A stretch of DNA of 64,000 bases, taken from contig CM075988.1 of the NCBI GenBank assembly GCA_038087875.1, positions 26,476,001 to 26,540,000 of the forward strand, given 5' to 3'. Within the stretch, counting starts at the first letter, position 1. Each line of letters starts with the position of its first letter. Below, piece after piece: positions 13,601 through 59,454 of the stretch. The notes below the pieces were generated by a model. It made no database searches. It had not been told where the DNA came from and saw only the letters and a program-made list of their open reading frames with translations. The stretch is from Malacoraja senta. Taxonomy: Eukaryota. The position numbers and the translations under genes are program-made.

Positions 13601-16600
13601 CTCAGGCTCATTGCCATTCAAATTGGAGGAGCAGTTGGGATAGTATTAAGAACCTTGCGTTCATGCATTGGGAGAGCACAGGGGTCCTGAGTAAATGGCA
13701 AGAGTGCACCACTTCATCAACTACCTATTTACCGAACAAGACACACAACTACATAAAAGTTAACTTCAACATCCACCACAGCGGATTCCCCACATTCCTC
13801 AATTGATGGAAGGCAATAAAATCTAATCTTCCTCTTTATTCTCTGCGGTCGGGGCAGTCGAGGTATTCGCAGTCGGGGTGATCGAAGCTCCCGCAGCCGG
13901 CGATCAAAGCTCCCGCATCGGGGCGGTCAAAGCTCCTGTGGTTGGAGCTCCCGGAGCCGGTCTCTAACCAGAGCCCGTGAGCTCCACGATGTTAAAGTCC
14001 GCAGGCTCCCATGATTGGCGCTCCAAGGTCGATGCCCGTCAGGGATCATCAGCTCGGCAATGTTGTCCCGTAGTCTCCCGTGGTTGGAGCTCCCGCAGTC
14101 GGTCTCCAGCAAGAGTCTGCCAGCACCACGGTGTTAGGCCGCAGTGCTGACGGAGATACGATACAGGAAAAAATCGCATCTCCGTCGAGGTAAGAAATTT
14201 TAAAAAGTTTCCCCCAACCCCCACCCCCCACATAAAACAAGCTGAAGAACACTAAAACATACATTTAACACATACTAAAAAAACAACAAAGGAAGGGACG
14301 AGACAGACTGTTGGCGAGGCAGCCATTGCTGGCACAACCTGGTGAAAATTGCACACAATACTCCCGGCATGGTCTCACCAGGGCCCTGTACAACTGCAGT
14401 AGGACCTCCTTGCTCCTAAACTCAAATCCTCTCGCAATGAAGGCCAATATGCCATTAGCTTTCAGTGACTGATTTACAAGCACACCCAGGTCTCATTGCA
14501 TCTCCCCTTTGCCTAATCTGACACCATTCAGATAATAATCAGCCTTCCTGTTCTTGAAACCAAAGTGGATAACCACATTTATCCACATTATACTGCATCT
14601 GCCATGCATCTGCCCACTAACCCAACCTATCCAAGTCACCCTGCAGTCTCATAGCATCCTCCTCGCAGCTTACACTGCCACCCAGTTTTATGTCATCCAC
14701 AGACTTAGAGATGTCACATTTAATTCCCTCATCTTAATCATTAATATATATATATATCGACCGCCCTGACGCGGGAGCTTCAATTGCCCCAACGTGGAGG
14801 CTTCGACTGCTGGCTGCGGGAGCTTCGATCGCCCTGACTGCAGATGGCTCGACTGCCCCAACCATGGGAGAATAAGGAGGAAAGAAGATTAGACTTTATT
14901 ACCTTCCATCACAGTGGGAATGTGGGGAATCCACTGTGGTGGATGTTTATGTTAACTTTTGTGTAGTGTGTGTCTTGTTGCTTTTTTTAGTATGGCTGTA
15001 TGGTAATTCACATATCACTATACCTTAATTGGTCAGATGTTACTGTAGATAACTTTGTTGTGGATTACACACCGCAGAGTGTACAGAGCCACAGTCTGTA
15101 GTGTTGTTCTTCCTAAACCACTGTGTGTAATAAAACGACATCACTTGTATTCATAAAGATTACAAGTTCTAGCATAAAGATTAAATTCATGGCTAATTCC
15201 ATAACAATATAATTAGTGCTTGACAGCTTTTGAATTACTGAAATGAGCAAGTTTAAACTATCAAAAATATGCCAACGTTTTATCTATCAATGAGATAGAT
15301 CATGGTTTTGTTATTTTTGAAATCTTAGTGCTTACAATCACAGATCAATATGAAGAAAACACTGGGCTGTGAAAATAAATGTTACTTTAACTGCAAAAAT
15401 CTGTGTCTTACAATGATTTTGTTTTAATGGACATCGGCCATCTAGCATCAATGTTCTGTGTTTATACATCACTTCAAAGGTCGTCCTGTTCTAAACTACA
15501 TTTTCTTAGTTTTTAGGCAGCTGCTTCCGAATACACAGAAGACAACGATATACTATTCCAGGGTAAAGGGATTAGAGAGTATCAGCCCTCTGCTCAAATC
15601 TATTGATGAAACTCCAGAACCCATTTTAGCAAATGTCAAAGGGGACTTTCCCAAATGGTTAAGGGGAAATCTGCTGAGAAATGGGCCTGGGAAGTTCGAA
15701 TTTGGAAATGACAGGTAGGCATATTTTCTTGCCCATGTTTTATTGCACAAAATACTGTCAGTTCCACAAGATGCTTCACTGCCTGGTCAAGCAATTTAGT
15801 TTAGTTTAGAGATACATCATGGACACGGGCCAACCCAACTGTCTTGCTGTCATGATTCTCCCATTCATCATGTGAAGTTATTTATAATACGCAGGGTACA
15901 AGAATAGTCGGTATGAAAGGCAGATAGAATTTTCTTTCCAATTTCCTATACTTGTCACATATTCTTGTAATGTAGAAGGTGTGAAGTTGTTTGTACGTGT
16001 AAGACGGAATTGCTGATGCTGTTTAAACTGAAGATAAGACACAAAAAGCTGGAGTAACTCGTCGGGACAGGCAGCATCTCTGTAGAAAAGGAATGGGTGA
16101 TGTTTCGGGTCGAGACCCTTCTTCTCAGTTGTTTGTAGGTCAGTTACCTAAAAGTGGTGACGTTAATGTTCATGCCATTAAGTTGCAAGTTACCCAAGTG
16201 GAGTACACTGGCTCTCAGGACAATCACATGAAACCCATTCCCTCCACTTATCTCTCTGTAACTTATTGCCTCTTACATGCCTGTCAACTATCCCACGATT
16301 CTCCTGCCACCCACCAATACCAGGGACAACTTACTATCTATTAACCACATAAAACACTGTCAACCATGCTCAAAAATGTATTCAATGGTTGATCAAAATA
16401 CATGTACCTAAAATTGATTGGGGCCTCTCAGGCGACCATTTACACTGGTCAGTCAGCGGGTTCACCAGTCAGTGGGTTTAGAATCAATCAATAAATATTT
16501 TGTTCAAAGGTCTGCCCCTCATAAATTCAGTATCAGATGAGACCCAGAGTCATGTGCAGCTTAACCGGCTTTGCCTAATTAACCTATCCTTTTATGCTAA

Positions 16601-19600
16601 TTGAAGACAACGGAGATAGAGTATGTTGAAGGGCTATAGAGTGTGGGGAGCAAGGTTTGTGAACTTGAAAGAAAATCAATACTTTGTCAAATTTTTGTGA
16701 CAAGATCCAATTTCTAAGTAGCAATGTTTTACTAAACCTGGTCTATTCTCATTTTAGATATAACCACTTGTTTGATGGCATGGCCTTGATGCATCAGTTC
16801 AGAATTGATGATGGTATTATAACATACATGAGCAAGTTTCTACAGAGTGACGCATACTGCATCAACAGCGCACATGACCGAATCATGATATCGGAGTTTG
16901 GAACGGTAGCCATGCCGGACCCATGTAAAAGCATTTTTGAACGCTTCACTAGTCGATTTGATATATTGGGTAGGTGTCAAATATATCAATTTAATTTGTC
17001 ATTGAAACCTTGGAAGGTCAAGCTTAATGTTTACTTCAAATACCGTTTTGTTTTAAGATGCAACAGATAATGGCTCTGTGAACTTTGCGTTGTACAAGGG
17101 GGATTACTATGCTACCACAGAAACTAATTTTATCCACAAAGTGAATCCACATACCCTTGAAACAGAAGAAAAGGTAAGATTCACTTTATTGTTTTATGAA
17201 TCAAACTTCATTTTGTGAAGATTATTTCAAATATGATACTTCTTTGCTGTTGGAAACAAAACTTAATTCAAACATGATTACATTGATATTGTAGGACTGG
17301 AGTCTCCCCTGCCCTCTATATTTGCAGTGTGCTGCTAATGTGACCATTGGCCACTCTCCAGAATTTCTGGCTGAACTTTGTTAGTCAATAATTGCTAGAA
17401 TTCCTCATGAATTCCTTTATTTGAATTTGGGATGAGAGCAATCTTGATCTGAGAGCTGATGTAGGTTCCCGTTTTTCTTTATCCATTCTCACTATGTGTT
17501 TCATCTGATGAAAGGGTCTCGACCCGAAACATCACCCATTCCTTTTCTCCAGAGATGCTGCCTGTCCTGCTGAGTAACTCCAGCTTTTTGTATCTATCAA
17601 CAGTATGTATTTCATCCTTTCACTATTCGTATGATTAATCCTCCATTGATCCCATGAGAAATGGCTTCCTGTGAATGATCGGCTCACTTGTCAATGGCCC
17701 AGCTGCCAATGTATTTTGGGAAGTGACTAGCACCTCTCCCTTGAATGTAGTAACTTTCTCAGTGACCCATCTGCCAACATCTGCTGATGAATGACCAGTT
17801 CACCCTTCCTCACTGACTGCAGTAACTGTGACAGAAAGCTCTGACTTGTAAAGTAAAGTCTATTGCCAAAAACAATGGAAAAAGAAGCTGTCCCCATCCT
17901 CTAACACTGATTCTGCACCCTCCTATCTTCCTATCCAATGTTTGTGCCATCTAGTTATCTCTGTTTTTTTAATGAGTCCAAAGGAATATAGGTGGAAGGG
18001 GACAGGTCCAGGTGGGGCATCGGGAAGAGAGGGGGAGACAAAGGTGGTGCTAGGTATTTTTAGGTTAGTAACCTAGAATTGGAGATTTCAATGTTCATAC
18101 CGTTGGGTTGCAAGCGATCTAAGCAGAATATGAGGTGCTGTTCCTCCAGTGTGCATGTGTCCACACTCTGGATTAGTGTCAATGGTGGCTTGACAGTCAA
18201 AATGTCAAAATACTTCCAATCTATATGACTCAATGACAACTGACACCTAAAAGCCTTCAAACTACCTGGGGAGTGACTCAATGTGAAACACCTTCAAACT
18301 ACGTAGGGACTCACTTAATGTGAATCCAATCTCCTTTCGGCCAGAGAAACTGTGAAAGTGAAATATTTGCATTTTAAAAATAATCTCTGTTGTTTATGAT
18401 GTTCTTTCTAGATAAATTTGACCAAATATATTGCAGTGAATGGAGCCACAGCCCACCCACATTATGATCCAGATGGAACAACATACAATATGGGCAACTC
18501 CTATGGCAAACATGGTATATCTACCTGTTAACAACGTAACCATTCTGTTAATGTCTACAAACATCCTCTGAGAACTATAGAGTTGGATCTATTTCAAGCT
18601 TAATAAAACTTTATTTTACATATGAACAGGTGCATTGTACTTTCACAAGTGAAGTTCTTCTTGTCAGCTGGCATTAGTGTAAGAGAGTCAACACTTGTAA
18701 TCCGTGATCCTCTTCATTCAACTACTCCTAACCCTCACCCTTAACCTTGTAAATCCAACAACTGAAAATTATTGTAAAGTATTAGACTTTTGTGCTACTC
18801 TTCTGCTGCAAGATCTTGCATGTTAATGTTTGATGCAGCCAAGCTAAGTAAAATACAAAAACAGATTTTGGCAGTTTTATTTGCAATTGGACATCCAACA
18901 AATTGTGCTTGGGAAATGCATCAGCACCAGTACAATAGAAATGTGTCTTACATTAAAACCGGAATACATTCCAGAAGCTGTAGGTGTAGTCCAGACCATA
19001 ACATAGACCAGACACCCCACCATTGACTCCATCTACACTTCATGCTACCTTGGAAAAGAAGGCAACATAATCAAAGGCTTGTCCCATCATGGACATACCT
19101 TTTTCTCCCAAACGTTTGGTTTTCAAGAGGGAATTGGAAAACCATTTGAAGGCCAAGTAAGTTGGAAAAGAGTGAGGGAGTGGAAATGGCTGTACTTCTC
19201 TACATACCTTGACCCAATGAGCAGAATGGAACAAAAGAAAGAATTGGAATAAAAATTGTATACTTTCAGATCCATGGGCTACATTTTGATTTTCTCTGCT
19301 GTACCAATTCTGATTTCATGATTTCTGTTCCAAATGATTTCTTGGATGAAATTGTAGACTATTCATACCTAGAAATTGCATCACATAATAATGCAATCTA
19401 ATTTCAGTGAAAAATAAAATGTGTTTGAAAATCAGAAACTTTGTCCATGGACCTGAAAGTATATGATGTTTGTTCCAATTCTTTCTGACGATGCATGGGG
19501 CCGGGACATTCACACTGAATCCAGCAACCTTGGACAGCACGTTAACACCACGTGGCCAGTTACCTCAGTTCCATCAGTGTGGGTCTTGTCTGCATGGAGT

Positions 19601-22600
19601 TACATACCATCTCTGTGAGACAAGGAGACATTTTTAGTTTACATAGTTTAAAGATACAGGGCAGAAACAGGCCCTTTGGCCCACCAAGTAGCAATGTTAC
19701 AAAATTTTGAGATTTTAAAAATAAAGTCTGCAATTTATCCCATCAGATAAAGCATAAAAAGAAGTTTAATTTGACACTTAATTCACTTTCATATCTTCAG
19801 TATTAAAAAAGTTATGGCCATTATCATACTCAGAAATTTGCATCTAGTTCCCTATTGCTTTTCCATTGACTTAACACAAAAGCTGTGATCGAGGACAGTT
19901 AAAAGCCCATAACTTTCTTAAAAATTATGATAACTGAAAGGAATGTTCAGTTATTATAGATTGAAGCATTCTGAAACAAATATGAAACAATCTTACTTCG
20001 AAGACATGAAAGTAAAGCATATAATTAGTTAGTTACCTAATTGTAGCTAATTACAAAATTCAATTACTAGATCTAAACATCTATCAATTTCTTAAGAATA
20101 GATTAACATTTTTAAATAGCCTAAGTGTCCAAATAACATTCACACAATAATTCACAATATAACATAATTTTTAAATCTAATTTTCATGAATTTACAGGCC
20201 AAATGGAAGGAATTGAATGTTTAATACCTGTAAATTAATGGGCATTTAATTCATCTTGTGAGTGAGGATTTCTGGAACGCGATCTTTTGGAACGTTCATT
20301 TGCGGTGAATTTAACCCCGTATTGGCATGAAAAATACTGCCGTTAATTCGGGGAATAAAATCACCGTGTCGCATGAAAAAATGTGAATTAAAGGCTTCTT
20401 AAGAAGCACTTTTATACATTTAAAGAAACCACTTTCGTTTACCTGTCCCGTGTGTGAAATCCGTCCCCGTTATCGGCGTTGACGCTTCAGGAGTTGATTT
20501 TAAAATTACTCTAGCGCTGACATTGGCGATTTAATAAAAATAAAAAATACACAAAAGGCCACTAGGAACGATTTGTCAGCCAAGGCTTGTACTCCAACAA
20601 AATATTAACCAGGACAAGGGAGGAGAAACCCGCGTTTTAACCTCGCCCCCCCCCCCTTAAAGGCGCCAAAATCGCGCACACGGCCAGTGGCAGAATTACA
20701 GCGCGACTGAAGGTAAGTTTTGTAACATACCTACACCAAGTCTGCGCCAACCACGATCACCCCGTACACTAGCACTATCCTATACACTAGGGACAATTTA
20801 CAATTCTTACCAAAGCCAATTAACCACAAACCTGTATGTCTTTGGAGTGTGGGAAGAAACTGGAGCACCCGGAGAAAATCCACACAGGCCACAGGAAGAA
20901 TGTACAAACTCCATACGGACAGCACCCGTGGTCAGGATCGAACCCAGGTCTCCGGCGCTGTAAAGCAGCAATTCTAGCACTGCGCCACCATGCTGTAACT
21001 TTGAGCACCTTATATCTTTTCCTCCATCCACCTGGTAATTTCTTCACCTGACTGATCTCGGAAAAGACTGTCTGTTTTGGTGTTGGGCATGTGACTACTG
21101 TGACATGCCAAACCTGCCTGATTGAGTGCAAGTGGAGTTGGCTTGGGAGAGGACACTGATGTCTGAAGAAGGGTCGCAACCCAAAATGTCACCCTTTCCT
21201 TCTCTCCAGAGATGCTGCCTGTCCCGCTAAGTTACTCCAGCATTTTGTGTCTACACTGATGTTGACCCAACTCCAGGCTCATCACCCTTGCCTGACATTT
21301 TTCTATATCCACTAACATTGTGAACGACCTAGCTGTTAACTCCTGAATGCTGAATGCACTCAACCTCTTTGTTCAGTTTCATTTTTAGTTTAGTTGAGTT
21401 TAGTCTTCCTGGCTTTTGCTCCAGCAACTCTACGAGCTGGACCTGGGTGGGAATGATTACCTTTGCATGCAATGTACTGGTGAAGTGAGATCAGACGAAG
21501 GTTTCAACGCTGAGAAACACAAGTGTGGATCTAATCGACTGATTATGCTTTGTGTTTTATTTTGTAGGTACGATGTTTAATATCATTGCAGTTCCTCCAC
21601 AGATGTCAGATGATGAGGAGACACTTCAAGGAGCAAAGATAGTTTGTGGCTTTGAACCAGAGGACAGCTTAAACCCTTCTTATTACCACAGCTTTGGTTT
21701 GTTGTACTTACTAATTGACAGCTGAAAATATGAACCAATATTTACATCTTCGTGTATTAAGGATGAACTGCAATATTTCTCTCTCGTGTTTTAAAACACG
21801 TTTTTACCTGTATATAATATCACAAGCTATCTAAAATATAACTTTTGTTTATTTTTAAGAATAGCACCATTTTTGGATGAGTACCTGATCCAAGCATCAG
21901 GCACGTACTGCAGTACCTAATCAATGTCAAAAGGAATGGCAGAAGATAAATAAAGAAAAGCATAAGGAGAAATTATTAATAATTTTAAAGATTGCAAACT
22001 AGGAGAAGATTGAGGGAGATAAGTTATAAGTGGATGGCCATTACAGAAGTCTCTACATATTATGAAACTTTGTAAAATGATTGATTCAAAAAATGAATGT
22101 TGTTATTTTCTTTCCAAGTGGAGGGGGTAAACATGCATTAATTCAGTAATCCTGTATAATTTATTCATCTCCATTTTCAAAAGGATATGTCTAATCTAAA
22201 ACTGGAAGGATATTATCTACTCACAAGGTGGTATAAATTTCCAACAGAAGCAATTGAGGTTGCATTAAATAATATTTAAAATATACCCTGGCTGAAGCAA
22301 AATAAAACAAGTGATGAAAAATATATAAAATAAGCATTGAACTTTGTAATCATATACTTACAGGATTTTATTTTTCTGTGACAGGAATGACCAAAAACTA
22401 CATCATCTTTGTTGAGCAACCTCTAAAAATAAATGTAATGAAAATTCTCACATCCAAACTCAGGGGCAAAAGTATTGGTTCTTCAATAAACTGGAATCCA
22501 GAACTCAACACCATTATCCATGTAGCAAATAAACACACAGGAGAGGTAACTCATTGACATTATACCTTATGGAAAATTTTGTTTTTGTTCATACTTTCAG

Positions 22601-25600
22601 GTATCAGGTATAATTTATGTACCAAAGGCTAGAGGGTGGAACAAACTATTCAGTGTTCTGAGATTATACACTATGAAGAAGGCTATTCATGTTGGGAATT
22701 CACTTAAATTATGCAATTAATAAAGTAACAATAGCCCAATATTGTCTGCCACATTAACCATATAATCAGCAGAAAGTTGGCGAATGCTTTACTTTCTTCA
22801 AGAAGGAAGAACGTTTGGCCCAGGTGGACTATTCTCAATCTGGCATCACATGCTTCCAAAATGGCTTGCTCCAACAGGGTGTTGTGATAAGCCTTTTAAT
22901 GAGTCAGCTAGCTGCTATTCCAGCTAGATAAAAATGAGGTGCAGATGGAGAGAAGGGGAATGGCCAAAGAACTTCCCTAACTGCTCTATTGTTAAATATG
23001 CATCTTAACATCAGAAAATGAACATTGAAGATCCTGAAAACACCTTGTTTGTTTCCTGATTTTGCAGAGGTAGCTAATCTCAGCCAGTATGCCCATCCAA
23101 GCTCTATAAATGGTACAGGAGAAAATGAATTAATAAACCTCAGAATCAATCAGCATTGATATCTATTGGAAAATTTATGATTGCAGACTTTGTGCATGAT
23201 TAGGAGTGTTGCTAGGAGTGGTGCTCAATGAGGAGAGAGTCCTGCAGGCATTGATGACCTTCTGTTGTACCATGCTGTTACTGCATACAAGGTGAGATAG
23301 ATGGCAAGAGTGGGAGAATATTGGATAAAGTACAGTTTCTGGAAGCATCAGAACAAGGTGATATATGGTAGCATCTCACCCCAAATCCATTGTATCATGA
23401 GTAAGGCAGAAGCTGGGAGCCACTCACCTGCCAGTATATGTGCAACGCCTACAATACTCAACCTCCATACCATGCACACCAAAGTGATCAACTTGATTGG
23501 CACCTTATCCCCCAGCCCAATCATTCATTCCCTCTGCCAATGTTGCAGTGTGTGCTACCCACAAAATGCACCAGTTATTCACCAACTTACTTCCTATCCA
23601 TGTTCTGTCACAAAGAACAAGGGCAGCAAATGTGTGGAAATAGTACCACCTGCAAATTACCCTCTGAATTGCACATCATGCCAACTTGGAAATTATTCTC
23701 TGTCCCTTCATTGTTGCTGGATCTAAATCCAACTCCTTACACAACAGCAATATGGAAGGAGAAGAAAAGAACAGCTGGAGGAACTCAGCGTGCCAAGCAG
23801 CATCTGTGGAGGGAAACGGACAGATGTTGTTTCCGTTCCTGACTTCTGAATGATGGGTGGGTCTAAAGAAGGGTCTCTATCTGAAACATCATCAGCCATT
23901 AGTCTAAAGAAGGGCAATGACTCAAAATGTCTGGCCATGGAGGCTGCCTTCCTCCGGCAGTTTGTCTTTTGCTCAGGTTTCCAGCATCAGCAGTCTGTGG
24001 TGTCAGCATTATGCATGGACCTTCGTTTGAAGCACTGCAGCTGTTAAGGAAGGTCTCAAGATCGAAATTCGGGATAAAGCCAGTAAACTATATATTTTTT
24101 AAGTTGTAAAGTTGTTGCATCCCTCGGGGTTGAATTGTATTTGAACAATGGTCTTCCTTAATGCTCAGATTGCATTAACATTTCTCAGGCCAGGTGTCAC
24201 TGGGCAAATGAACAATTGCTCTAGATACATAATTGAAGGAACTTGCAGTCAAATTTCACCACCATGACTGAATCTTTCCCCTCCCACTCCAGACAAGATG
24301 TCTCGAACCCGGGCACCAGGCAGGCCACACAACATTTGGGACTCTTGATTCTTGTGGCAGGGAATAGTGGTTTCTCCCCTAACTATACCATCTCCAATGA
24401 CAATTACTCTTTTCTTGTCTGCTCTTGAATGGCTCCCTGAACCACAGTGCCCTGGTCAGGTTGCTCATCCTTCCTACAGCCCCCACACTCATCTGCACAG
24501 AGAGCAAGAATCTCACACCTGCCTGATTGAATAGGAACATGCAGCAAGTGCACTACTTGGATTTTAATTCTTATTTTGCCCTGGGTGAGTTAAATCTCTA
24601 CCTTAAAATTCTCTCTGGCCATGGGAGGAAAATGGCAGAGGGCCAACAACGTTGGTTAATTCCTCAGTTAAATGCGGTTGGAGAGTGTTGGACAAGGGAG
24701 CTAAGAATAGAGGAACAGATGAATGGTACTTTAAAAAGACAATGGTGAACCAATAAAGTAATTAACACTGTGAGCGTACACTTAACTATGTTAGCATTTG
24801 ATAAATATTGGTACTGATGAAGAAGATATTTGAATTTTCTCAGGTGACAGGATTATGGAAAATTTAACTTTTATTAAGTATCTTCACGTTCTTTTATAGA
24901 TCATTCCATTAAAATATTACACCAAAGCCTTCTGCATATTCCACCATATCAATGCCTTTGAAGATGATGGCTTCATTGTATTTGATATTTGCCACTTTGA
25001 AAGTGGGCATTTCCTGAATAATTTAACTCTGCAAAACCTGCAGAAAGATGGGGAAGAGTTGGATGAGGTAAAACCAAACTCTCTTTACACTTTCTCAGCT
25101 TTACATTTGACAGATTTAGAACTAGAAATAATAGCGCATTTCAGATGAATGATTATGAATATTGAAAATAATTTTAGAAATAAAATTTATTCATTGTGAA
25201 AAAAAAAAAAAAAAATTGTAAGTAGAGAATTTTAAAAAGGCAGATGCTGAAAATCTGAAATGAAAATATAAAATGTTGGAAACATATGTTCGCAGAACAT
25301 GCAGCACAAGATAGGTCCTTCAGCCCACAATGTCTGTTGCAAATATGATGCCAAGACCAACTCTTTTCTGCCTCCACATAATCCATATCCCTCCATTCCC
25401 TGCATATCCATGTGCCTATCTAAAAGTCTCCTAATGCTACTAGAGCATCTGCCTCTACCACCACCCCAGGCAGCGTATTCCAGGCATTCACCACGCTCTG
25501 TGTAAAAAAACTTCCCTCGCTTATCTCCTTTAAACTTCCCCCCTCTCCCCTTAAAGCTCTGACCTCTAGTCTTTAATATTTCCATCCTGGGAAAAAGATT

Positions 25601-28600: not shown

Positions 28601-31600
28601 GCATCTGCTGATGGTAAACACAACAGCCAGACAGTGCAGCATTCAGTAGGAAATCCTGATTCGAGACTTGAATACTATGCTCCATCTGTGGAATGTTTTT
28701 AACTTCCCACAACTTCCCACAGCTGAACACAGTCTCAGCAACACAAATAACCTTTGGTTAACACTGTTTAAGGGATAATTACAGTGCCCTCCATAATGTT
28801 TGGGACACATGACTTCACAGGCATTTGTGATTGCTCAGGTGTGTTTAATTGCCTCCTTAATGCAGGTATAAGAGAGCTCTCAGCACCTAGTCTTTCCATC
28901 ATCTTTGGAAACTTTTAATGCTGTTTATTAACATGAGGACCAAAGATGTGCCAATGAAAGTCAAAGAAGCCATTATGAGACTGAGAAACAAGACATCAGC
29001 CAAACCTTAGGCTTACCAAAATCAACTGTTTGGAACATCATTAAGAAGAAAGAGAGCACTGGTGAGCTTACTAATCGCAAAGGGACTGGCAGGCCAAGGA
29101 AGTCCTACACAGCTGATGACAGAAGAATTCTCTCTGTAATAAAGAAAACCCCCCAAACACCTGTCCGACAGATCACAGGTGTGGATTTGTCAATGACCAA
29201 TGTCCGCAGAAGACTTCATGAACATGAAATACAGAGGCTACATTGCAAGATGCAAACCACTGGTTAGCTGCATAAATAGGATGGCCAGGTTACAGTTTGT
29301 CAAGAAGTACTTAAAAGAGCAACCACAGTTCTGGAAAAAGGTCTTGTGGACAGATGAGACGAAGATTAACTTATATCAGAATTATGGCAAGAGCAAAGTA
29401 TTAGGAGAGAAGGAACTGCCCAAGATCCAAAGCATACCACCTCATCTGTGAAACACGATGGTGGGGGTGTTATGACCTGGGCATGTATGGCTGCTGAAGG
29501 TACTGGCTCACTTATCTTCATTGATGATACAACTGCTGATGGTAGTAGTATAATGAATTCTGCAGTGTATAGACACATCCTATCTGCTCAAGTTCAAACA
29601 AATGCCTCAAAACTCATTGGCCAGCGGTTCATTCTACAGCAAGACAATGATCCCAAACATACTGCTAAAGTAACAAAGGAGTTTTTCAATGTAAAAAAAT
29701 GGTCAATTCTTGAGTGGCCAAGTCAATCACCCGATCTGAACCCTATTGAGCATGCCTTTTATATGCTGAAGAGAAAACTGAAGGGAACTAGCCCCCAAAA
29801 CAAGCATAAGCTAAAGATGGCTGCAATACAAGTCTGGCAGAGCATCACCAGAGAAGACACCCAGCAACTGGTGATGTCCATGCATCGCAGACTTCAAGCA
29901 GTCATTGCATGCAAAGGATATGCAACAAAAAACGAAACATGACTACTTTCATTTAAATTACATTGCTGTGTCCCAGACATTATGGTGCCCTGAAATGGGG
30001 GGATTATGTATAAACAATGCTGCTTCTTCTGTAAAATGTCTAAAATTCCTTCTGGCATACAACATTTTTTTTCTGTGACTTCTACAGATTTGGTGTGAAT
30101 CTGAGAAACTATATGCTGATGACTTGCTGAACGAAGGTGGGTTGGAGTTTCCGCAGATTAACTATGCAAAGTACAACACAAAAAAATACAAATTTTTCTA
30201 TGGATGTGGAGCAGGTCATTTGATAATGGATTCTCTCATGAAGATGGATTTGGAAACAAAGACATTTAAGGTATGAATGAAGTTAAATATAATAGTGCTG
30301 TCATAGTACATGTAGACTAATTCTTAGTTAAAGATCTGTGTTGTGACTTTTTCCTGTATTTTATCTTTGAATGAGCAATCAGACACTAACAAAACCTATG
30401 ACACATTTGACGCGTTTTCACCAACTATCCCCCTATAATTATTCAACAGTGGAATTTTGCTCAATGGGCATTGTTTCATTATATTCAGACCTATCTACTA
30501 ATGGAGACACAACTACAGATGTTGAAATCTTGAGCAAAACACAAAGTGCTTGAGGAACACAGAGGGTCAGGCAACATCTGGGAGGAAATGGACAGATAAT
30601 GTTTCGGGTGAGAACCGTTCTTCAGACTGGTCAGTCTGAAAAAGGGTCCCAGCCCAAAACATCACCTGTCCATTTTGTCTGCTGATGTTGCTTGATCCAC
30701 TGTATTCCTCCAGCACTTTGCTCAAGATTTCAACATCTACAGTTCATTGTGTTTCCATTATTAGATAAGTCTCCAGCACTTTGTGTTTTTCTGTAATAAT
30801 GGTTTTGTTTACAATCCCAATCTTCTGAATTTTTTTAATTCCAATCATTTGGAATCATTGCAGGATTCCAAGGCAATATAACATTGTTACTTTCTAATCA
30901 TTGTCTATCAGTCCACTACCTCCTCCAATTCCATATCTTCAGATATCCTGTCTTCCATCTGAACATTACTCATACTGGTTCCTTTAGTATCACCGAACTG
31001 CTGCCAAAACCTTCTGATAGCCAATTATCATTTTGAGATTTCTCCTCCCAATAATCTCTTGATTGGTCTTTCAAAATGTCTTTTCGCTGACTGGTTAGCA
31101 CGCACCAAAAGGTTTGCACTGTACCTCAATACACGTGACAATAAATTAAACTAAATTCTGTTAACTTCAGTTCAACCAAATCATTCCTGCCTTCATCCTA
31201 TCCTATACTATTGTACATAGCTACACACTTGGTCCTTGCTAACCAGATGTTGACCTCAGTGGCTGGCTGTTGGCTTTGCCTTGTAACTTGGCATTTCTAG
31301 AACTCATTCTTTAATTCTTTGGATGTTTAAGGGTTTCATGGGTAAATTCTGCAAACCCTCCCCCCACCACTCCCAACCAACCCCCCCCCCTCCTGAGTAT
31401 ATCAGGTGATTAACTAGTTATAAAGCCTTTTGTAAATGTTGTAATATAAATATCTATTTGCCTTTGACCTAGCATTCAACGTTTTCTTTATCTTTGTGAA
31501 GAGGTTTGGCTGAGGTTTATGCATCAAGGTCAATGCTTGAATTTTTTTCTCTCCACAGATCTGGAAAGAAAAAGGCTACTTTCCATCGGAACCAATCTTT

Positions 31601-33352
31601 GTGCCGTCTCCTGATAGTGTAGAGGAGGATGATGGAGTTATTTTGAGTGTAGTCATTTCACCAGATCAGGTAACCAGCATTTATTGTCTTACCTCAGAAT
31701 TAATTTTCATTAGGGTAGGGTACATCTTTAGTTTAGTTGGACAAGGGTGTTAAGGGATATGGAACCACAGCAGGTAAATACATTTAATTTTCATCAACCA
31801 CCATCTATTTGAATGGTGCAACGGATTCAATGGTGTGAGGTGCTTATTCATAAGATCTTAAGACATAGGAGTAGAATTAGATCATTCGGCCCATCGTGTC
31901 TGCTCCTGCATTCAAGCATGGCTGATCTATCTTTCGCTCTCTACCCCATTCTCTTGCCTTCTCTCCATAACCTTTGACATCCTTAATAATCAAGAACCTG
32001 TCAACTCCGCTTTAATGATGCCAAATATTTGGCCTCCACATCTGTCTATGGCAATAAATTCCACAGATTCATCACCCTCTGATGAAAAAAATTCCTCCTC
32101 TGTCATTCTAAAGGTCTGTTCCCTCTGGTCCTAGACTCTCCCATTACTGAAAACATCCTCTCCACATCCACTCTATACAGGCCTTTCATTATTTGGTAGG
32201 TTTCAATGAGATTCTCCCTCATGCTTCTAACCAAAGACCATAGAAGGCTTGCTCTAGTATCTTTGCTTCTAACCTCCAGCAAGTATAGGCTCAGAGCCTT
32301 AAATTATCCATTATTATTGGTCCTGTGAATTTTTGGTCATTAAAGGGGTTTTCAAAAAGGTACCCAGTTTAACACATGACAAAGCCAACAGTTTCAAGCA
32401 CCAGGCAACACAATGTAAAAGTTAACATTTGTAGATGCTGGAAATCTGAAATAAAAACAGAAAAAATGAGATTCTGAGTAGGTTGGGCCAAATCTATGGA
32501 GAGAAACAGGAATAATGTTTCGGGTCAATTATATTTTCTTCAGAATTGCAAAAGCGAGAAAGTAAACATGTTTTTACTTGCAAAGAGGACGAGGGGTGGA
32601 AAGAACTAAGGGAATGTCTGTGGAGACCAAGGTTGTTCAGGTGGCACAAATGCATTTAGTGCTGTGCGAGTGAATGATGAATGCTTGTCAGTTACAATTG
32701 AACTCTCCCGAGGAGTGTAAGTAGAGGAAGGAGAGAAGAAAGCAACATGCAGGAATGATGCCCTGGGACCTAATCTCTCTCACCTGCCCATCCACTCCAC
32801 CCATATATCCCTACCGCCATTATGGATAACTTACACCAACTGGTTAACCGGCCAGGCAGCGTAGCATTGGGATGGGAGAGGAAGTGTCGGGTCACTGCTT
32901 ATCATGTTGTGTATGGGGAATATTGGGGCCATGGTAGCAACATGCTAGATTCATAACTCCTACAACTTCCAGTTCACTAATGAAGCTTCATGAAAGATTC
33001 TCGCTGTGTTGTCATGCTCTCTGCTGGGAACATGAGTTGTGAATGATGACCTCACCATATTTTCATTAAATCATCAAGTATTTGAAATGCGCGTGAAAAT
33101 GCAAGGATTAATGTTTCACAAGGATTAGTGTAGCTCTACATCAAAGTTAACTGAAGGAATATATTTTATATAAAACTGGTTTTTTATATTTATGACTTTA
33201 ACTGTTATTTCACTAAAGACCCTGCTATTGTTTTACAGTGCAAGAATAGCATGGTGCTTGTGTTGGATGCTAAGACCTTCACTGAGAGGGGTAGAGCAGA
33301 AGTGCCTGCCCAAATGCCATTCGGATTTCATGGTGTCTTTGCAAAATGTTAG
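4545..33352 (+). CDS. BCO2: Beta-carotene oxygenase 2 family gene, 12 exons (4545-4638, 15510-15714, 16758-16969, 17058-17173, 18412-18514, 21568-21696, 22385-22545, 24900-25067, 28153-28290, 30088-30270, 31559-31669, 33239-33352), ~577 aa
   Basis: Exons join in frame with matching phases (1734 nt incl. stop). Motifs: [74 protein letters not shown]. Orthologue versus BCO2-like paralogue not resolved. Confidence 0.9.
6113..6625 (-). mobile_element. CR1 LINE 3' fragment
   Basis: RGYLIKTY...[13 protein letters not shown] and CR1-type 3' UTR. Confidence 0.8.
7428..7755. repeat. Tandem duplication, 2 x 163 bp
   Basis: Copies start at 7428 and 7591; one mismatch seen (gctgtaca vs gctgaaca). Confidence 0.9.
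8624..9509. mobile_element. Foldback non-autonomous DNA transposon (ISL2EU-like) with THAP-domain remnant
   Basis: Termini AGGGGGGTTGCACG / CGTGAAACCTCCCT flanked by AT; long inverted arms; ORF 8765-9028 has NC...FRIP...VCSLHF. Confidence 0.7.
10455..11872 (-). mobile_element. CR1 LINE, 5'-truncated, frameshifted RT
   Basis: [42 protein letters not shown] and conserved 3' tail. Confidence 0.92.
13190..13700 (+). mobile_element. Old RTE-clade LINE 3' fragment
   Basis: [23 protein letters not shown]...RLWTGH resembles the RTE/BovB RT C-terminus. Confidence 0.55.
13730..14338 (-). mobile_element. Non-autonomous composite retroelement, copy 1
   Basis: Shares ATGGCTGCC start, T-rich/G-run segment, GC-rich internal repeats and 3' tail with the copies at 35878 and 58200. 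Confidence 0.6.
14340..14745 (-). mobile_element. CR1 LINE RT fragment
   Basis: [31 protein letters not shown]. Confidence 0.8.
15510..15714 (+). CDS. BCO2: BCO2 exon 2
   Basis: ttttcttag acceptor (alternative AGs end at 15516 and 15520); ...[30 protein letters not shown] donor. Confidence 0.88.
15996..16126 (-). mobile_element. Short Penelope-derived element with hammerhead-like motif
   Basis: 11-bp TSD agttgtttgta (15985-15995 / 16127-16137). Confidence 0.7.
16758..16969 (+). CDS. BCO2: BCO2 exon 3
   Basis: ttttag acceptor; [14 protein letters not shown]...[18 protein letters not shown] donor. Confidence 0.93.
17058..17173 (+). CDS. BCO2: BCO2 exon 4
   Basis: [47 protein letters not shown]. 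Confidence 0.93.
17505..17603 (+). mobile_element. Short Penelope-derived element with hammerhead-like core
   Basis: CTGATGA-AA-GGGTCTCGACCC-GAAAC-ATC; 12-bp TSD tatgt(g/a)tttcat. Confidence 0.7.
18412..18514 (+). CDS. BCO2: BCO2 exon 5
   Basis: [34 protein letters not shown]; first Fe-binding His motif; AG/GT boundaries. Confidence 0.93.
19645..20995 (-). mobile_element. tRNA-derived SINE interrupted by a DNA transposon
   Basis: A/B-box head (TGGCGCAGTG..., GGTTCGATCC) near 20930-20995; tail at 19645-19688. Confidence 0.75.
19689..20733. mobile_element. Non-autonomous TIR DNA transposon
   Basis: TIRs TAGCAATGTTACAAAA / TTTTGTAACATACCTA; 7-bp TSD caccaag. Confidence 0.8.
21163..21252 (+). 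mobile_element. Short Penelope-derived element
   Basis: Begins CTGAAGAAGGG; 10-bp TSD acactgatgt. Confidence 0.7.
21568..21696 (+). CDS. BCO2: BCO2 exon 6
   Basis: [10 protein letters not shown]...LNPSYYHSF; second Fe-binding His motif. Confidence 0.93.
22385..22545 (+). CDS. BCO2: BCO2 exon 7
   Basis: [14 protein letters not shown]...[17 protein letters not shown]. Confidence 0.93.
24900..25067 (+). CDS. BCO2: BCO2 exon 8
   Basis: [31 protein letters not shown]...; third Fe-binding His motif. Confidence 0.93.
25285..25765 (-). mobile_element. CR1 LINE 3' fragment
   Basis: VDSQNLFPR...KTRGQSFK...[10 protein letters not shown] and 3' UTR. Confidence 0.75.
25935..27042 (+). mobile_element. 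5'-truncated L1/Tx1-type LINE
   Basis: ORF2 C-terminal CCHC region (IQFKVLHR...CDKC...LTHTFVNC), AATAAA + A-rich tail, 17-bp TSD agaaacattaatgttca. Confidence 0.87.
27697..27925 (+). mobile_element. CR1 LINE 3' end
   Basis: Reverse complement of the CR1 tails at 10455 and 53658. Confidence 0.75.
28153..28290 (+). CDS. BCO2: BCO2 exon 9 (GC donor)
   Basis: [17 protein letters not shown]...[11 protein letters not shown] followed by AAG|GCATGT. Confidence 0.88.
28389..28484. repeat. Tandem repeat, 3 x 32 bp
   Basis: tcttgtttgtggtcagcttcctcatggatgat. Confidence 0.9.
28782..30020 (+). mobile_element. Degraded Tc1-like transposon, right end truncated
   Basis: TA|CAGTGCCC terminus; frameshifted transposase with [24 protein letters not shown]; inverted copy of the terminal motif near 29969-29992. 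Confidence 0.9.
30088..30270 (+). CDS. BCO2: BCO2 exon 10
   Basis: IWCESEKLY...[25 protein letters not shown]...KTFK; AAG|GTATGA. Confidence 0.93.
30489..30770. repeat. Inverted (palindromic) pair of Penelope-derived short elements
   Basis: Arms symmetric about ...CTTCAGACTGG|TCAGTCTGAA... Confidence 0.75.
31559..31669 (+). CDS. BCO2: BCO2 exon 11
   Basis: [46 protein letters not shown]. Confidence 0.93.
31858..32290 (-). mobile_element. CR1 LINE 3' fragment
   Basis: Similar to the 6113-6625 copy. Confidence 0.75.
33239..33352 (+). CDS. BCO2: BCO2 exon 12 (terminal)
   Basis: [37 protein letters not shown]; fourth Fe-binding His motif. Confidence 0.93.
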
Positions 33353-33632
33353 ATTGGATTATAGTGAGTCCACGCTTTGCTGTTACTACACTTGCTTCAC
33401 TCTGTTACTTCACGGGAAATGTACCATAGTTCAAACAAAAGCTTGCAATTTTTATATTAGCAAATAATAATAACAATTGTTTCCAGTTAAACAACTCTTA
33501 GTATGCTCAACGTGTGTGGTATGGGACAAAGAATGTTCATCATCCCAGTGGGAAAAAAGACCATTGTTAGAGCTCAATTTAAACAATCCCTAACTCCCTA
33601 AATACATACCAAATGTAGATTAAAAGGATCAG

Positions 33633-33638
33633 AATAAA
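33633..33638 (+). promoter_or_regulatory. Candidate polyadenylation signal of BCO2
   Basis: AATAAA ~280 nt after the stop; other AATAAA hexamers occur further downstream. Confidence 0.35.
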
Positions 33639-34030
33639 GTTAGATTGCCACCCTTTAGAGGAAGTCTGAAAATAATCTTGACCTTTTTTTCCTCTCTGTT
33701 GTGCTAAATAGTCACTGCGGGAATCATATAATATAGAATAGATTGATGCACATCACTTAAGCCCATGTTGATTTAGTGATGAGTGGGTAATTTCCCAAAA
33801 TATATTGTTGAATCTCTCAATGATCATTCATTCAAATGCAAGTTAAATAAATTTCTCTGAGAAAATAAAATTTAGAGATTTAGAATCTGATTAGCAAGAG
33901 TAAGCATGGTGACTCTCGTGATCTTGGGAAGAAACAATGGCTGTGAATAAATAGTTTCCAATATTCTCCATGGCTGAATATTGTTTTTTGGATCTGCTGT
34001 GGAGTATTTGATGGACTGAATGCTGTAATT

Positions 34031-34493
34031 CAGGGGTCTCCAAACTGCGGCCCATAGGCCATTTTATCCGGCCTGCAGCAAGCTCTTAACACATTCTGGG
34101 GGAGGGAGAGGCCGAGGGTACCCGGCGCGCTGTCTCCCCGCTCCTGGACCTACCCGGCGTGGCCCTTCCCTGCACCCGGTCCCCGTACCGGTTGCAACCC
34201 GGGGGCGGGGAGACACTGCACCGTGTACCCTCGGCCTCTTCCTCCCGCTCCCTCTGCTCCAGGGACACTCACCCCCCCCCCCACCCGACATCATCGCCGT
34301 CCTGCTGGAGAAGACGGGGCCCGCGGTAGTTTACATCGAGACAGATATAGAGATAGATAGAGAGAGAGAGACACACAGACAGACAGAGAGAGAAACAGAG
34401 AGAGACAGACAGAGACAGACAGAGAGAGAGAGAGAGAGAGCGACAGAGAGAGACTGAGAGATAGAGAGGAAGACAGCGACAGAGAGAGAGAGG

Positions 34494-34556
<63 letters not shown>

Positions 34557-34683
34557 AGAGCAAGACGGAGAGAGAGAGACATTACATTTATAAAACTGAC
34601 ATTTCTTTATTTTTTCCTGCGGCCTGCAAAAATGTGCTAAATATATAATGTGGCCCTCATACTACAAAGTCTGGAGGCCCCTG
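34031..34683. mobile_element. hAT (Charlie-like) MITE containing a (GA)n microsatellite
   Basis: TIRs CAGGGGTCTCCAAACT / AGTCTGGAGGCCCCTG; 8-bp TSD ctgtaatt. Confidence 0.87.
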
Positions 34684-35877
34684 CTGTAATTAGCAACGTT
34701 GTCACATGCTGCCATCAGAACAGTTGAAGGCAAACCCATGGGCTTCATGGATGGTCAAAACACTGGAGTAGATAAAGATAAGTTATTTCTATTACAGGGG
34801 GAGTTGGGAGGATAAGATAGAATCTAAAAGTTAGGACAACGTCTTTTGAAAATGAAGTTGGAAACTCTTTTACACTCAGAGAATAGTAGAAGTTTGGGTA
34901 GCTGAGGAAAATGCCAGTCACTGGCATATGTTCAATTAAATATCAATAAATTGACAGATTTGGCTTAAACCCTGGTGTGGAGAGACACAGGCTTGGGGCG
35001 GGTAAATGGCTTAACCTCACCGGCCAAGGGTCTGGAAGATTTATTGAACAGTGATTGGATAGGACATGAAGGTAGCACTGCTTAATCATTTACTTATTGG
35101 TAAGGAATTATTGGGATAATGCAGAAATTGGCTCTAATCATATTTATTCAGACTGAAGAGTCTGAAGAAGGGTTTCGGCCCGAAATGTTGCCTATTTCCT
35201 TCGCACCATAGATGCTGCTGAACCTGCTGAGTTTCTCCAGCATTTCTGTCTACCTTAAAGTAATTGCTACTTGACTTATTAACTTGTATACAATAGTTAG
35301 CTTGTAGTGACTGATCTGTACATGTATCTTCCTATTGCTGAATATAGAAAATAGCATTAAAATGTGATTCCTGAATTGTATGCAAGAATTGTTGATTTGT
35401 GAAAGACGATCCTGGACTATTAACACAGAAATATTTTATCCATGTTCCCAGAACATTTGCATTGCAGCTTTTTATGGAGAACTACTTAAGTACATGTTTC
35501 ATATTTAATTGCAGGATTTTCATATTTCATATTTATTTCATATTTTCATATTTAGTCAGGATTGAACCCGGGTCTCTGGCACTGTGAGGAAGCAATTCTA
35601 CCACTGTGCCAATCTGCCATGTTGCTTGATGGTGATGTATAAATAGCATCCACATTACTCTGCATTGGGTGCAGGGTCGATATCCAGCAGGGTCTGAAGA
35701 AGGGTTCTGACCCTAAACATCACCTATTCCTTTTCTCCAGAGATGCTGCCTGATGCGCTGTTACTCCAAATTTTGTGTCTATCTTTTGTGTAAACCTGCA
35801 TCTGCAGTTCCTTCCGACACAGTTTATCTCTATTCCTTTATGTCTCGCAGAGCCCCCAACCGACGGTGGGGGCACTG

Positions 35878-36742
35878 CGAGATGGTTGCCCTGCCAGCAG
35901 CGTGTTAGTCATTTCTACTTTTTTTGTTCTTTTAGTATGTTCAAATGTTTGTTTTAGTGTCTCTCGGTGTGTCTTGTGTGGGAGATGGTGAGTAGGGGTA
36001 AGGGGGAAACCGCTTTTGGTCGCCTCCTCCACGGAGAGGCGACTTTTTCCATGTCGCCTCCCTTGCACCTAACATCAAGGACTGGTGCGGCCTTTCCCGG
36101 AGTCGGGCCCGGAGCTTCAGCAGCGGGCGCAGCGTGGACTTTTTCCGATCGCTGGCCAGCGGACTGTTCAGCCTGAAGTCGCGGTCTGCGGAGCTTCTAG
36201 CTGCGGGAGCGGCGTCCGGAGCCTGGGATCCCTTGTTGGGGATCCCCGGAGGAGAAGAGCTCCAACTATCGGCCTGCAGCCTACAACATCTTGAAGCTGC
36301 AGTCTGCGGAGCTTCTAGCTGCGGGCGCGGTGTGGACTTACCTACCGGAGCGGGATCCCTCGTCGGGGATCCCTGGAAAAGAGCTCCGACCACCGGCCTG
36401 CGGCCTACATCATCTTGAAGCTGCGGATTCCGGTAGGGAAGCACCAATTCGGGACTTAATTTCCAGAAGAGAGGGCCTGTACATCTGGCCGCCCGCAGCG
36501 GCGACCGCAGAGGTTTATGGCCCAGACCACGGAGGAACAATGGAGGAGGACTGACTGTACTTTGTGCCTTCCACCACAGTGAAGAATGCTGCGGCGGATG
36601 TTTGTGTTAAATTTTATTGTGTATTGTGTGTTCTTTTTTATTGTACCGCTGCTGGCAAATTAATTTCACTGCACTTTATTGTGTATGTGATGAATAAAAA
36701 TCTGATTGATTGATTGATTGATTGATTGATTCATTCATTCAT
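35878..36742 (+). mobile_element. Non-autonomous composite retroelement, copy 2
   Basis: GATGGTTGCC start, ~125-bp GC-rich internal repeats, AATAAA + (GATT)n tail. Confidence 0.65.
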
Positions 36743-37189
36743 TCATCTCCAGACTCCCTCTGCTGGTGAATTCTGGTGAGCCAACCTGGCAAAAACAAGT
36801 TCGACAACGACACAACAGGGTCAAGTTGAGTTTATTGACATCTGCACAGGTATGGTGAGGTACCCTGACTCTAACCCTACCCCTAACTCTAATGCAGGTG
36901 CAATGAAAATCTTGCAGCCACATACTCAGAAAAATGCACAAAAACATGAATTATATATAGAATTCTGTAAGACCATAAAGAGAAAGATTATATAAATAGG
37001 AATACTTTAGTGCAAAGCAAAATTAGGAAAAAAACAAGTAGTGCAATTAGTAGAAAGTAGGATGTGGGCTGTGTGGGCTGGTTCAGTAAGCTGATAGTTG
37101 TAGGAATGTAGCTGAACCTGTTGTGGAACTTTACCTGCCCGATGATTTACCATCATACTCTATATACCTCACTTGATGTTTTCAGTGTT

Positions 37190-37797
37190 TAGAGATACAG
37201 AGCAGAAACAGGCCCTTCGGCCCAACGAGTCTGCCCCGACCAGCGATCCCCCCACACTAACACTATCCTACACACTAGGGACAATTTACATTTATATCTG
37301 AAGAAGGGTTTCGGCCCGAAACGTTGCCTATTTCCTTCGCTCCATAGATGCTGCTCCATGCAAAGAGTTGAACAATCTCCACTATAGGAAATAGGCGACG
37401 TTTCCTTCGCTCCATGCAAAGAGTTGAACAATCTCCACTATAGGAAATAGGCAACGTTTCGGGCCGAAACCCTTCCGGGTTTCGGCCCGAAACGTTGCCT
37501 ATTTCCTTCGCTCCATAGATGCTGCTGCACCCGCTGAGTTTCTCCAACATTCTGTGTACCTTAGATTTTCCAGCATCTGCAGTTCCTTCTTAAACACATT
37601 ACATTTATACCAAACCAATTAACCTACAAACCTGTAGTGTTGGAGTGTGGGAGGAAACCAGAGCACCCAGAGTACACCCATGCAGGAACCGGGGAGAATG
37701 TAAAACTCCGTACAGACAGCGTCCATAGCCAGGATCGAACCCGGGTCCCCGGCGCTGGGAGGCAGCAGCTCCACACGCTGCACCACCGTGCCGCCCA
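37190..37797 (-). mobile_element. tRNA-SINE with nested Penelope-derived insertion (37297-37598)
   Basis: SINE head GGCACGGTGGTGCAG...GGTTCGATCC; nested insert has 11-bp TSD ttacatttata. Confidence 0.8.
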
Positions 37798-40450: not shown

Positions 40451-41772
40451 GTGGGGGAGGGGAGTCACAGTGGGGGGCAGTGGGAGAGGGGGGTCGCAGT
40501 GGGGAGCAGTGAGGGAGGGGAGTCACAGTGGGGGGCAGTGGGGGAGGGGGGTCACAGTAGGGGACAGTGGGAGAGGGGGGTCGCAGTGGGGGGCAGTGGG
40601 AGAGGGGCGTCGCAGTGGGGGACGGGAGTCACAGTGGGGGGCAGTGGGGGAGGGGGGTCGCAGTGGGGAGCAGTGGGAGAGGGGCGTCGCAGTGGGGGAC
40701 GGGAGTCACAGTGGGGGGCAGTGGGGGAGGGGGTCACAGTGGGGGCAGTGGGAGAGGGGCGTCGCAGTGGGGGGGCAGTGGGAGAGGGGGGGTCACAGTG
40801 GGGGGCAGTGGGGGAGGGGGGGTCGCAGTGGGTCACTGTGGGGGGCAGTGGGGGAGGGGGGGTCACAGTGGGGGAGGGGGTCACAGTGGGGGGCAGTGGG
40901 GATCAGTGGGGGAGGGGATCACAGTGGGGGGCAGTGGGAGAGGGGGGGTCACAGTGGGGGAGGGGGGTCACTGTGGGGGGCAGTGGGGGAGGGGGGGTCA
41001 CAGTGGGGGAGGGGGTCACAGTGGGGGGCAGTGGGGGAGGGGGGGTCACAGTGGGGGAGGGGGGGTCACTGTGGGGGGCAGTGGGGGAGGGGGGGTCACA
41101 GTGGGGGAGGGGGTCACAGTGGGGGGCAGTGGGGGAGGGGGGGTCACAGTGGGGGAGGGGGGGTCACTGTGGGGGGCAGTGGGGGAGGGGGGGTCACAGT
41201 GGGGGAGGGGGTCACAGTGGGGGGCAGTGGGGGAGGGGGGGTCACAGTGGGGGAGGGGGGGTCACTGTGGGGGGCAGTGGGGATCAGTGGGGGAGGGGAT
41301 CACAGTGGGGGGCAGTGGGAGAGGGGGGGTCACAGTGGGGGAGGGGGGGTCACTGTGGGGGGCAGTGGGGGAGGGGGGGTCACAGTGGGGGAGGGGGGTC
41401 ACTGTGGGGGGCAGTGGGGGAGGGGGGGTCACAGTGGGGGAGGGGGTCACAGTGGGGGCAGTGGGGGAGGGGGGGTCACAGTGGGGGAGGGGGGGTCACT
41501 GTGGGGGGCAGTGGGGGAGGGGGGTCACAGTGGGGGAGGGGGTCACAGTGGGGGGCAGTGGGGGAGGGGGGGTCACAGTGGGGGAGGGGGGTCACTGTGG
41601 GGGGCAGTGGGGATCAGTGGGGGAGGGGATCACAGTGGGGGGCAGTGGGAGAGGGGGGGTCACAGTGGGGGAGGGGGGGTCACTGTGGGGGGCAGTGGGG
41701 GAGGGGGGGACAGTGGGGGAGGGGGTCACAGTGGGGGGCAGTGGGGGAGGGGGTTGTTCACAGTGGGGGGCG
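40451..41772. repeat. G-rich minisatellite (CAGTGGGGGAGGGGGGGTCA-type units)
   Basis: ~1.3 kb of short degenerate units, strong G skew on + strand. Confidence 0.95.
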
Positions 41773-59018: not shown

Positions 59019-59454
59019 TCTAATCACGGTACTGCAATTATTTTTTTTGCTGTAGCTTTAAGATAGTGGGTCGCAGTTGATCTTGGATGACTGGAGATGA
59101 GGATCACTGCGGGATGGAGATGCAGTGTGTGAACATTCACAGCGAGCGTGCGACTGAAACAGCATGCGTCCAACATTGTGACCCAGCCCAGCAGGATGCG
59201 TGTAGCCTGCAACCAGTGTCAAGCGCATGGTTTTATGCATTGGCGCAGAGACAGACAGAGAGAGACACAGCATCCCCACACCCACCACACTCGCTAACTC
59301 TCCCAGCCCATCCACATTCACACCACATTTCACAGTTTATATTGTGTCAACACTTTGCCAAGGAAGTTCACACACACACACCTCTTGCAACAGAAGATAG
59401 AACAACGCTAGCAGCAATGCTCAGGCAATCAGTACCAGTGTAACAGATCAGCAG

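Follow-up and report, generated by a model that had tools for sequence, protein, structure and literature searches.

Short hammerhead-headed insertions in a Malacoraja senta locus: probable retrotransposed 3' tips of a Penelope-like element, with a preferred 5' boundary at the ribozyme edge

The window analysed here, a 64-kb stretch of Malacoraja senta DNA, carries parts of two host genes on different strands: exons of an RPE65/carotenoid-oxygenase family gene at 16759-17175 on the forward strand (Pfam, E 5e-10) and an exon with an immunoglobulin V-set domain at 50593-50931 on the reverse strand (a weak match, E 0.006). It also holds the remains of other mobile elements, namely reverse transcriptase (RT) frames and a piece of a DDE_3 transposase at 1499-2444, 10541-11884, 53758-54855 and 28932-29942 (with Pfam RVT_1 matches at 1499-2044 and 53761-54855). 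At 40300-41900 there is a minisatellite, about 1.5 kb long and rich in G (GC 67%, skew 0.54). Dispersed through it are copies of a short module headed by a hammerhead ribozyme motif. A sequence-only reading of this DNA had noted more than 15 related copies, which proves to be an undercount: an nhmmer profile made from 12 copies and searched against the 64-kb window gave 48 matches at about 23 loci, amounting to 3,280 bases or 5.1% of the window.

Four copies had been described as insertions flanked by their own target-site duplications (TSDs), and a direct-repeat search recovers all four at the same positions, each with its own TSD and each beginning at a minimal type I hammerhead. Copy A (15996-16126, reverse strand) is a long-tail form whose 3' end lies at +130, counted from C3 of the core; it is damaged at the first bases of the core and has an exact 11-bp TSD (15985-15995/16127-16137). 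Copy B (17505-17603, forward strand, 3' end at +98), in which CpG decay has broken stem III, has a 13-bp TSD with one mismatch (17493-17505/17604-17616) and sits in an intron of the RPE65-family gene, copies A and B both lying in non-coding parts of that gene. Copy C (21163-21252, forward strand, 3' end at +89) has lost G12 and has an exact 10-bp TSD (21153-21162/21253-21262). Copy D (37297-37598, forward strand) is compound, with an intact hammerhead at 37298-37325 (the best copy quoted earlier, correct to the letter), an inverted partial unit at 37442-37476 and a restart at stem II (37477) that runs on to an end at +129, all within an exact 11-bp TSD (37286-37296/37599-37609). A 26-nt piece occurs twice inside copy D (37360-37385 and 37416-37441) and nowhere else in the window.

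Independent insertion of the short copies, as had been proposed, is thus supported by a separate TSD at each of the four sites. The TSD length of 10-12 bp given for them is right at its lower end, the full range here being 10-15 bp. In three of the four insertions the TSD overlaps the first 1-2 bases of the element (microhomology). Among 23 regions of the window tested for TSDs, five were clear (these four and the piece at 59455-60135 discussed below), four weak and 14 without any. Applied to 300 random placements, the same scoring gave no value of 10-19, 24 values of 7-9 and eight of 20 or more, these last being probably tandem repeats. Chance repeats were rejected as the source of the inserts. 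The simpler remaining copies include a short one at 35159-35257 (forward strand) with an intact core and a U-G stem III, and a long-tail form at 35692-35820 (forward strand), at neither of which the flanking-repeat search found a TSD; a copy of intermediate length at 51286-51498 (reverse strand), which retains part of an upstream pyrimidine-rich UTR and has a weak 10-bp TSD with one mismatch; and a copy at 55188-55302 (forward strand) that starts at about +6 and contains a partial 66-nt unit. The 3' ends fixed by TSDs lie at +89, +92 and +98 and at +129 and +130, and the window's 3' ends form two classes about 35-40 nt apart. [quoted passage not shown]

The window also contains a longer, parental form of the module. 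This 5'-truncated copy (59455-60135, reverse strand) is a 681-bp piece between exact 15-bp TSDs (59440-59454/60136-60150) and comprises a linker, a GIY-YIG endonuclease, a 3' UTR and the hammerhead module. Its open frame (59666-60135, open to 60166, reverse strand) has a CX4CX2C linker and a GIY-YIG endonuclease with the C,C,H,H residues; Pfam GIY-YIG (PF01541) matches it at E 2e-4 with 22.0 bits, just under the cut-off of 22.6. The module follows about 120 nt past the endonuclease stop, after a pyrimidine tract (59548-59600, reverse strand) that ends in TCAGT immediately before the core, at the start point of the short copies. The parent's minimal type I hammerhead (59517-59549, reverse strand) has its C3 at 59547, a predicted cut after 59520 and, in this copy, a broken stem III. 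Since the module follows a GIY-YIG frame here, the short inserts are very probably the 3' tip, in sense orientation, of an endonuclease-coding PLE, and the Penelope origin ascribed to them earlier is well founded.

The parent has a C-terminal GIY-YIG domain directly before the terminal repeat, which is the arrangement of EN+ PLEs, and the optional tail, the inverted and partial-tandem copies and the TSDs are likewise PLE characters. Its linker agrees with the CX2-5CXXC pattern given for Neptune and Nematis (Craig 2021, PMC8557442), and on this shared linker the parent may be assigned to the Neptune type. Twenty-five protein relatives of the window endonuclease were found at E <=0.001 among 294 candidates; those with a species name all come from sharks or rays, the closest being from a skate (73%), and two relatives, P0016 and P0022 (56% and 50% identical to the window frame), have RT and GIY-YIG in one chain. 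In public read runs long copies are present genome-wide, and read contigs extend upstream of 60136 with one common sequence. A search of the viral collection found no viral relatives of the endonuclease, and exact scans for the ribozyme motif had no match in the viral, metagenome or prokaryote genome collections.

The family consensus, as the earlier reading had recognised, conforms to the minimal type I hammerhead: CUGAAGA, then an extra A, a stem II of 4 bp, GAAA, a palindromic C-G pair without a loop (the palindrome ACGU, bearing out the palindromic stem III noted before), UC/UU and a helix I of two pairs. The layout is the same in a distant relative described below. Two caveats had been raised, namely the extra A after the core and the short stem I. 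The former, like the palindrome, is standard for such motifs (PMC4209133); the latter is real, helix I having two pairs in the consensus and one in the copy at 37298, and several copies lack its 5' strand because their first base lies 1-5 nt ahead of the core. The solo minimal hammerheads that Cervera and De la Pena (2014, PMC4209133) describe from truncated metazoan PLEs share with ours the missing loop III, the palindromic 15.2-16.2 pair, the extra base between A9 and stem II and a short helix I, and thousands of single motifs, including those of fish Neptune, Poseidon and Xena, are ascribed there to truncated PLEs; helix I is of two pairs here, however, and boundary statistics and cartilaginous fish are absent from the available text of that paper. 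The stems are paired in 93.5% of cells in 13 window and five distant copies, a value that none of 500 shuffles reached. Three of the six stem I/II pairs changed on both sides, but these amount to two or three events, mostly between the two families, and CpG decay accounts for many of the G-U cells.

Most copies are nevertheless damaged. Among the four insertions the core is intact only at 37298, and just two of the 21 window copies in which the 5' part is present have an intact core, stem II and stem III. A tally of 'hammerheads' in a genome of this kind would consist largely of dead copies. In 12 copies, CpG positions of the core are changed in 15/36 cells and non-CpG core positions in 7/120, against 47/427 cells at non-CpG positions downstream (counts that include subfamily differences). 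Decay of the hammerhead is mostly CpG loss, and the low rate of non-CpG change in the core relative to CpG and downstream positions indicates that the motif is conserved in the source elements and decays once inserted. The hammerhead model search that had been proposed as a check did not recover it: no hammerhead family was among 14 Rfam matches at E up to 5, likely because the models expect a stem III with a loop. Matches to Rfam mir-722 were dismissed, being inverted junctions of copies. Folding of the intact copy gave a hairpin, or a dimer via the palindrome, and not the hammerhead fold, an outcome that carries little weight for a motif believed to depend on protein. Dimer cleavage is reportedly treated by Lunse 2017 (cited in PMC6765202).

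The boundary and TSD statistics cover the window and one read overlay. Fifteen of 28 hand-listed window units have their 5' end at -5 to +2 of the core (P about 1e-8 if truncation points were spread evenly over 90 nt; the list omits four units scoring under threshold). Two of the others extend into the UTR and the remainder start further in, some of them partly as local alignment drops diverged 5' parts. The public reads (two DNA and two RNA runs, the latter poly(A)/oligo-dT) aligned to 59380-60220 break at the same place. Among the 24 rows of loose ends listed (there are 2,045 more), those at 59549 (-2) number 132, 221, 746 and 394 records in the four runs, those at 59550 (-3) 875 and 336 records in the RNA runs, and a second class at 59553, which continues into pyrimidine-tract variants, 109, 616 and 474 records. 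The flanks at 59549/59550 are heterogeneous (agreement 0.33-0.38 in 5/6 rows listed), and depth on the module is roughly 4-10x that on the endonuclease region. In X1 the summed contig depth, which is not a copy number, comes to about 2e7 for the module and 37 for the flank; it suggests several hundred thousand module copies, a figure we do not use as evidence.

This boundary coincides between window and reads and lies 27 nt before the predicted cut site, which substantiates the earlier claim of a non-random boundary away from that site. It is hard to reconcile with a boundary set by self-cleavage of the ribozyme, even though the core, stem II and cut triplet are conserved with the distant relative and half of the stem pairs compared above changed on both sides. 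Cleavage would place the boundary at +28; none of the 28 listed 5' ends falls at +27 to +29, and no loose end lies at 59519-20 among the 24 rows listed (with 2,045 more). Moreover, ribozyme mutants of an anole element still insert in vitro, the ribozyme of this Poseidon element (PAc) being dispensable there, and no reads end at its cut site (PMC11167929). The boundary data thus argue against self-cleavage as the maker of the template's 5' end, a cleavage-defined boundary is contradicted for the listed copies and rejected, and we regard this explanation as extremely improbable.

The distant relative, whose endonuclease is about 50% identical, was found at 80 loci, of which a single metagenome supplied 75. 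Its ribozyme is the same and lies about 110 nt past the endonuclease, and its 3' ends fall at +85-100 in 33 hits and at +135 or beyond in 36. The 5' ends of its 24 truncated copies, a small sample chosen by the endonuclease, by contrast scatter from -241 to +117, with only two within -9 to +4; since they do so despite the same ribozyme, the 5' pile-up is not caused by the fold of the ribozyme alone. None of the 24 truncated copies has a convincing TSD, and none of the 80 loci is a full-length element with a 5' pseudo-LTR. A TATAAA lies about 35 nt before the hammerhead core in the distant relative (L002:2175-2180 and related loci), and the window family has no such box.

What the distant relative lacks is the near-palindrome TCAG-T-CTGA over the first bases of the core. 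This absence, together with that of the pile-up, is in favour of a second account, which leaves the identity of the inserts as above and takes the boundary for the place where RT, copying a longer RNA, stops or switches template at this near-palindrome, with the self-complementary cDNA end pairing with the target or another cDNA to yield head-to-head pairs. Such pairs exist in the window, one at 30500-30760 (an older subfamily with a CAGT joint on both arms) and one at 38706-38875 (second arm from about +60); their arms contain CAGT or TCAGT (30625, 30636, 38803) and reach -4/-5, and palindromes at inverted PLE junctions have been described in rotifers (PMC3846280). The simple, TSD-bounded copies, however, end at -1/-2, where the palindrome is incomplete, and a 4-bp palindrome is a weak signal, so that we consider an RT stop unlikely.

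The sequence before the core, a long pyrimidine tract followed directly by CAG, also resembles a 3' splice site, and in D. virilis Penelope an intron has been mapped as ending at the 5' edge of helix I (Cervera and De la Pena 2014, PMC4209133). The short copies could then derive from RNA that was either spliced or splice-cleaved, and an exon joined on by splicing could extend the helix I that has two pairs in genomic copies. Yet no upstream exon common to the copies is seen and the TSDs abut the module; the loose ends are heterogeneous, the rows listed ending at the G or A of CAG and not after it; and no RNA joint falls at the boundary among the 15 joints listed (with 156 more). Splicing thus seems to us a quite improbable origin of the boundary.

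At least five inverted pairs occur in the window, and several loci carry tandem units. Besides the two head-to-head pairs, these compound structures comprise a hammerhead unit with one core-less 66-nt unit (43494-43660, reverse strand); an inverted structure with 66-nt units (47788-48146), which has a weak 10-bp TSD with one mismatch; an array of 66-nt units broken by an inverted insertion of a second subfamily (56713-57327, forward strand); an older copy (57714-58002) that encloses a younger, inverted one (57760-57893); and an older inverted unit with a copy starting at about +21 (61750-62065). The 66-nt units start at GAAAC and are without CUGANGA and stem II. At 57714-58002 about 50 nt of the older copy are duplicated, as if the 5' end had annealed to a homologous target, and at 57088-57215 there is a similar insertion of one subfamily into another.

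Some of these junctions recur. The 66-nt junction has a single form in ten occurrences at four loci, and one fold-back junction is common to 37465 and 57131; complex junctions shared by separate loci make re-mobilised non-coding templates possible, and suggest renewed transcription and movement of some compound copies, which may thus lead a partly non-autonomous life. The recurrence would also fit a separate non-autonomous SINE- or retrozyme-like family, in which a few masters beginning at the hammerhead are self-transcribed, perhaps cleaved and circularised, and mobilised in trans: a fixed 5' end is expected from a master gene, and non-autonomous partners of PLEs are known (PMC8557442, PMC9977147). 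A SINE-like element would, however, have a head or promoter of its own unrelated to its partner, whereas the whole module is collinear with the end of a coding element and unmodified from it, and the last unit of copy D is 95% identical to the parent's module and 92% to the short copy at 35171-35257. The 66-nt units, being without a core, fall outside the definition of active retrozymes (bioRxiv 10.64898/2026.07.22.740005), and no two consecutive tandem units with whole ribozymes were found within the window, where active retrozyme arrays are accordingly rejected. The scarcity of intact cores (2/21) and the RNA reads on the module, which are even across both strands as for passengers in host transcripts, also speak against such a family. 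With an endonuclease-coding PLE in the window and long copies genome-wide, with mostly dead ribozymes and core-less units, the non-coding retrozyme/SINE-like family of the sequence-only reading is not needed, and we think it improbable.

In our overall explanation, which we consider likely, the inserts are retrotransposed copies of the 3' terminal module (the pseudo-LTR tip) of a Neptune-type PLE. PLEs are described as using a nick and internal priming, with 8-10 bp TSDs and 5' microhomology (PMC3846280), and their pseudo-LTR holds an internal promoter (PMC2377424). For the 5' boundary, run-off from an RNA starting just before the core is a plausible cause, to which we give somewhat less than even credence. 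In line with established PLE biochemistry, the element's endonuclease nicks the target, and RT starts internally on the RNA, at one or other of two positions about 90 and 130 nt past the core. The template RNA would start at the initiator-like TCA(+1)GT that immediately precedes the core, either of a tandem copy, in its 5' pseudo-LTR, or of a solo copy. The initiator consensus is YYANWYY, and the TCAGTCT before the core fits it with +1 at -3. RT from the first pair of sites would run off the RNA 5' end after 90-130 nt, the run-off cDNA being joined to the target via 1-2 nt of microhomology, and RT from the downstream pseudo-LTR would give the rarer long copies; in the short copies the ribozyme would be a passenger.

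Several observations weigh against run-off. The head-to-head arms extend to -4/-5, beyond the proposed start at -3; the distant relative, with the same ribozyme and geometry, has scattered 5' ends; and the complex junctions common to separate loci hint at some non-coding templates. In D. virilis the RNA starts about 120 nt before the intron end (PMC2377424) by which helix I is marked (PMC4209133), and that precedent is thus not one of a start at the ribozyme edge. No RNA 5' end was seen, the read overlay listing no position at which many molecules begin or end, although fragmented poly(A) libraries can hardly show one. A G directly precedes the -3 boundary in three of five copies and one joint, which would fit cap copying, but this is too thin to count. 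On the endonuclease region (59670-60130) RNA reads have a strand bias of about 2:1 in X21, probably antisense to the element; those on the module are even, and X24 looks unstranded.

More tentatively, transcription may begin at the front edge of the hammerhead, so that the module of 90-130 nt plays the part of a retroviral R region and the run-off inserts correspond to strong-stop-like cDNA. If this is true, full-length copies would rebuild the pseudo-LTR automatically, and hundreds of thousands of short copies would map the RNA start and both RT starts, some of them being self-sufficient templates. A fixed boundary is of interest for the regeneration of the PLE pseudo-LTR and the role of the ribozyme (PMC2377424, PMC8557442), questions that become testable where a very large number of copies have both ends fixed.

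It is already published that truncated PLEs carry minimal hammerheads, that these occur in fish, that retrozymes derive from PLEs and that TSDs measure 8-10 bp. The fixed 5' boundary at the ribozyme edge, which searches of the openly readable full-text literature did not turn up, is one regularity beyond a mostly known feature. Neptune-clade EN+ PLEs (Craig 2021, PMC8557442) resemble the window family in the C-terminal GIY-YIG, the CX2-5CXXC linker, a hammerhead near the 3' end, 5' truncation, an adjacent inverted copy and an optional 30-40 bp tail, but their 5' truncation is described as variable and ours is strongly fixed. In Anolis Poseidon PAc (Frangieh 2024, PMC11167929) two internal RT starts shortly after the hammerhead likewise set the 3' ends; PAc belongs to another clade, however, and the main text of that paper reports no fixed 5' end. 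Animal non-LTR retrozymes (PMC7229834; bioRxiv 10.64898/2026.07.22.740005) share the type I hammerhead, an origin from PLE terminal repeats and long TSDs, and are known in a chondrichthyan, but they are described as tandem units each with a whole ribozyme, where we find single copies or core-less tandem units. New insertions of Chlamys-9/Chlamys-N4 (PMC9977147) are also short through 5' truncation (median 128 bp), although in a green alga (Chlamydomonas), from a clade with an N-terminal endonuclease and generally without a canonical hammerhead.

Two predicted 'receptor-transporting protein 3-like' proteins among the relatives of the window endonuclease (P0001 and P0012), from a skate and a distant shark, have PF13695 joined to this Penelope endonuclease, representing either an old shared fusion or two annotation artefacts. 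In P0005, a read-through prediction from a carpet shark, the C-terminal residues look as if encoded by the same hammerhead module, from which the endonuclease-hammerhead layout seems common across elasmobranchs.
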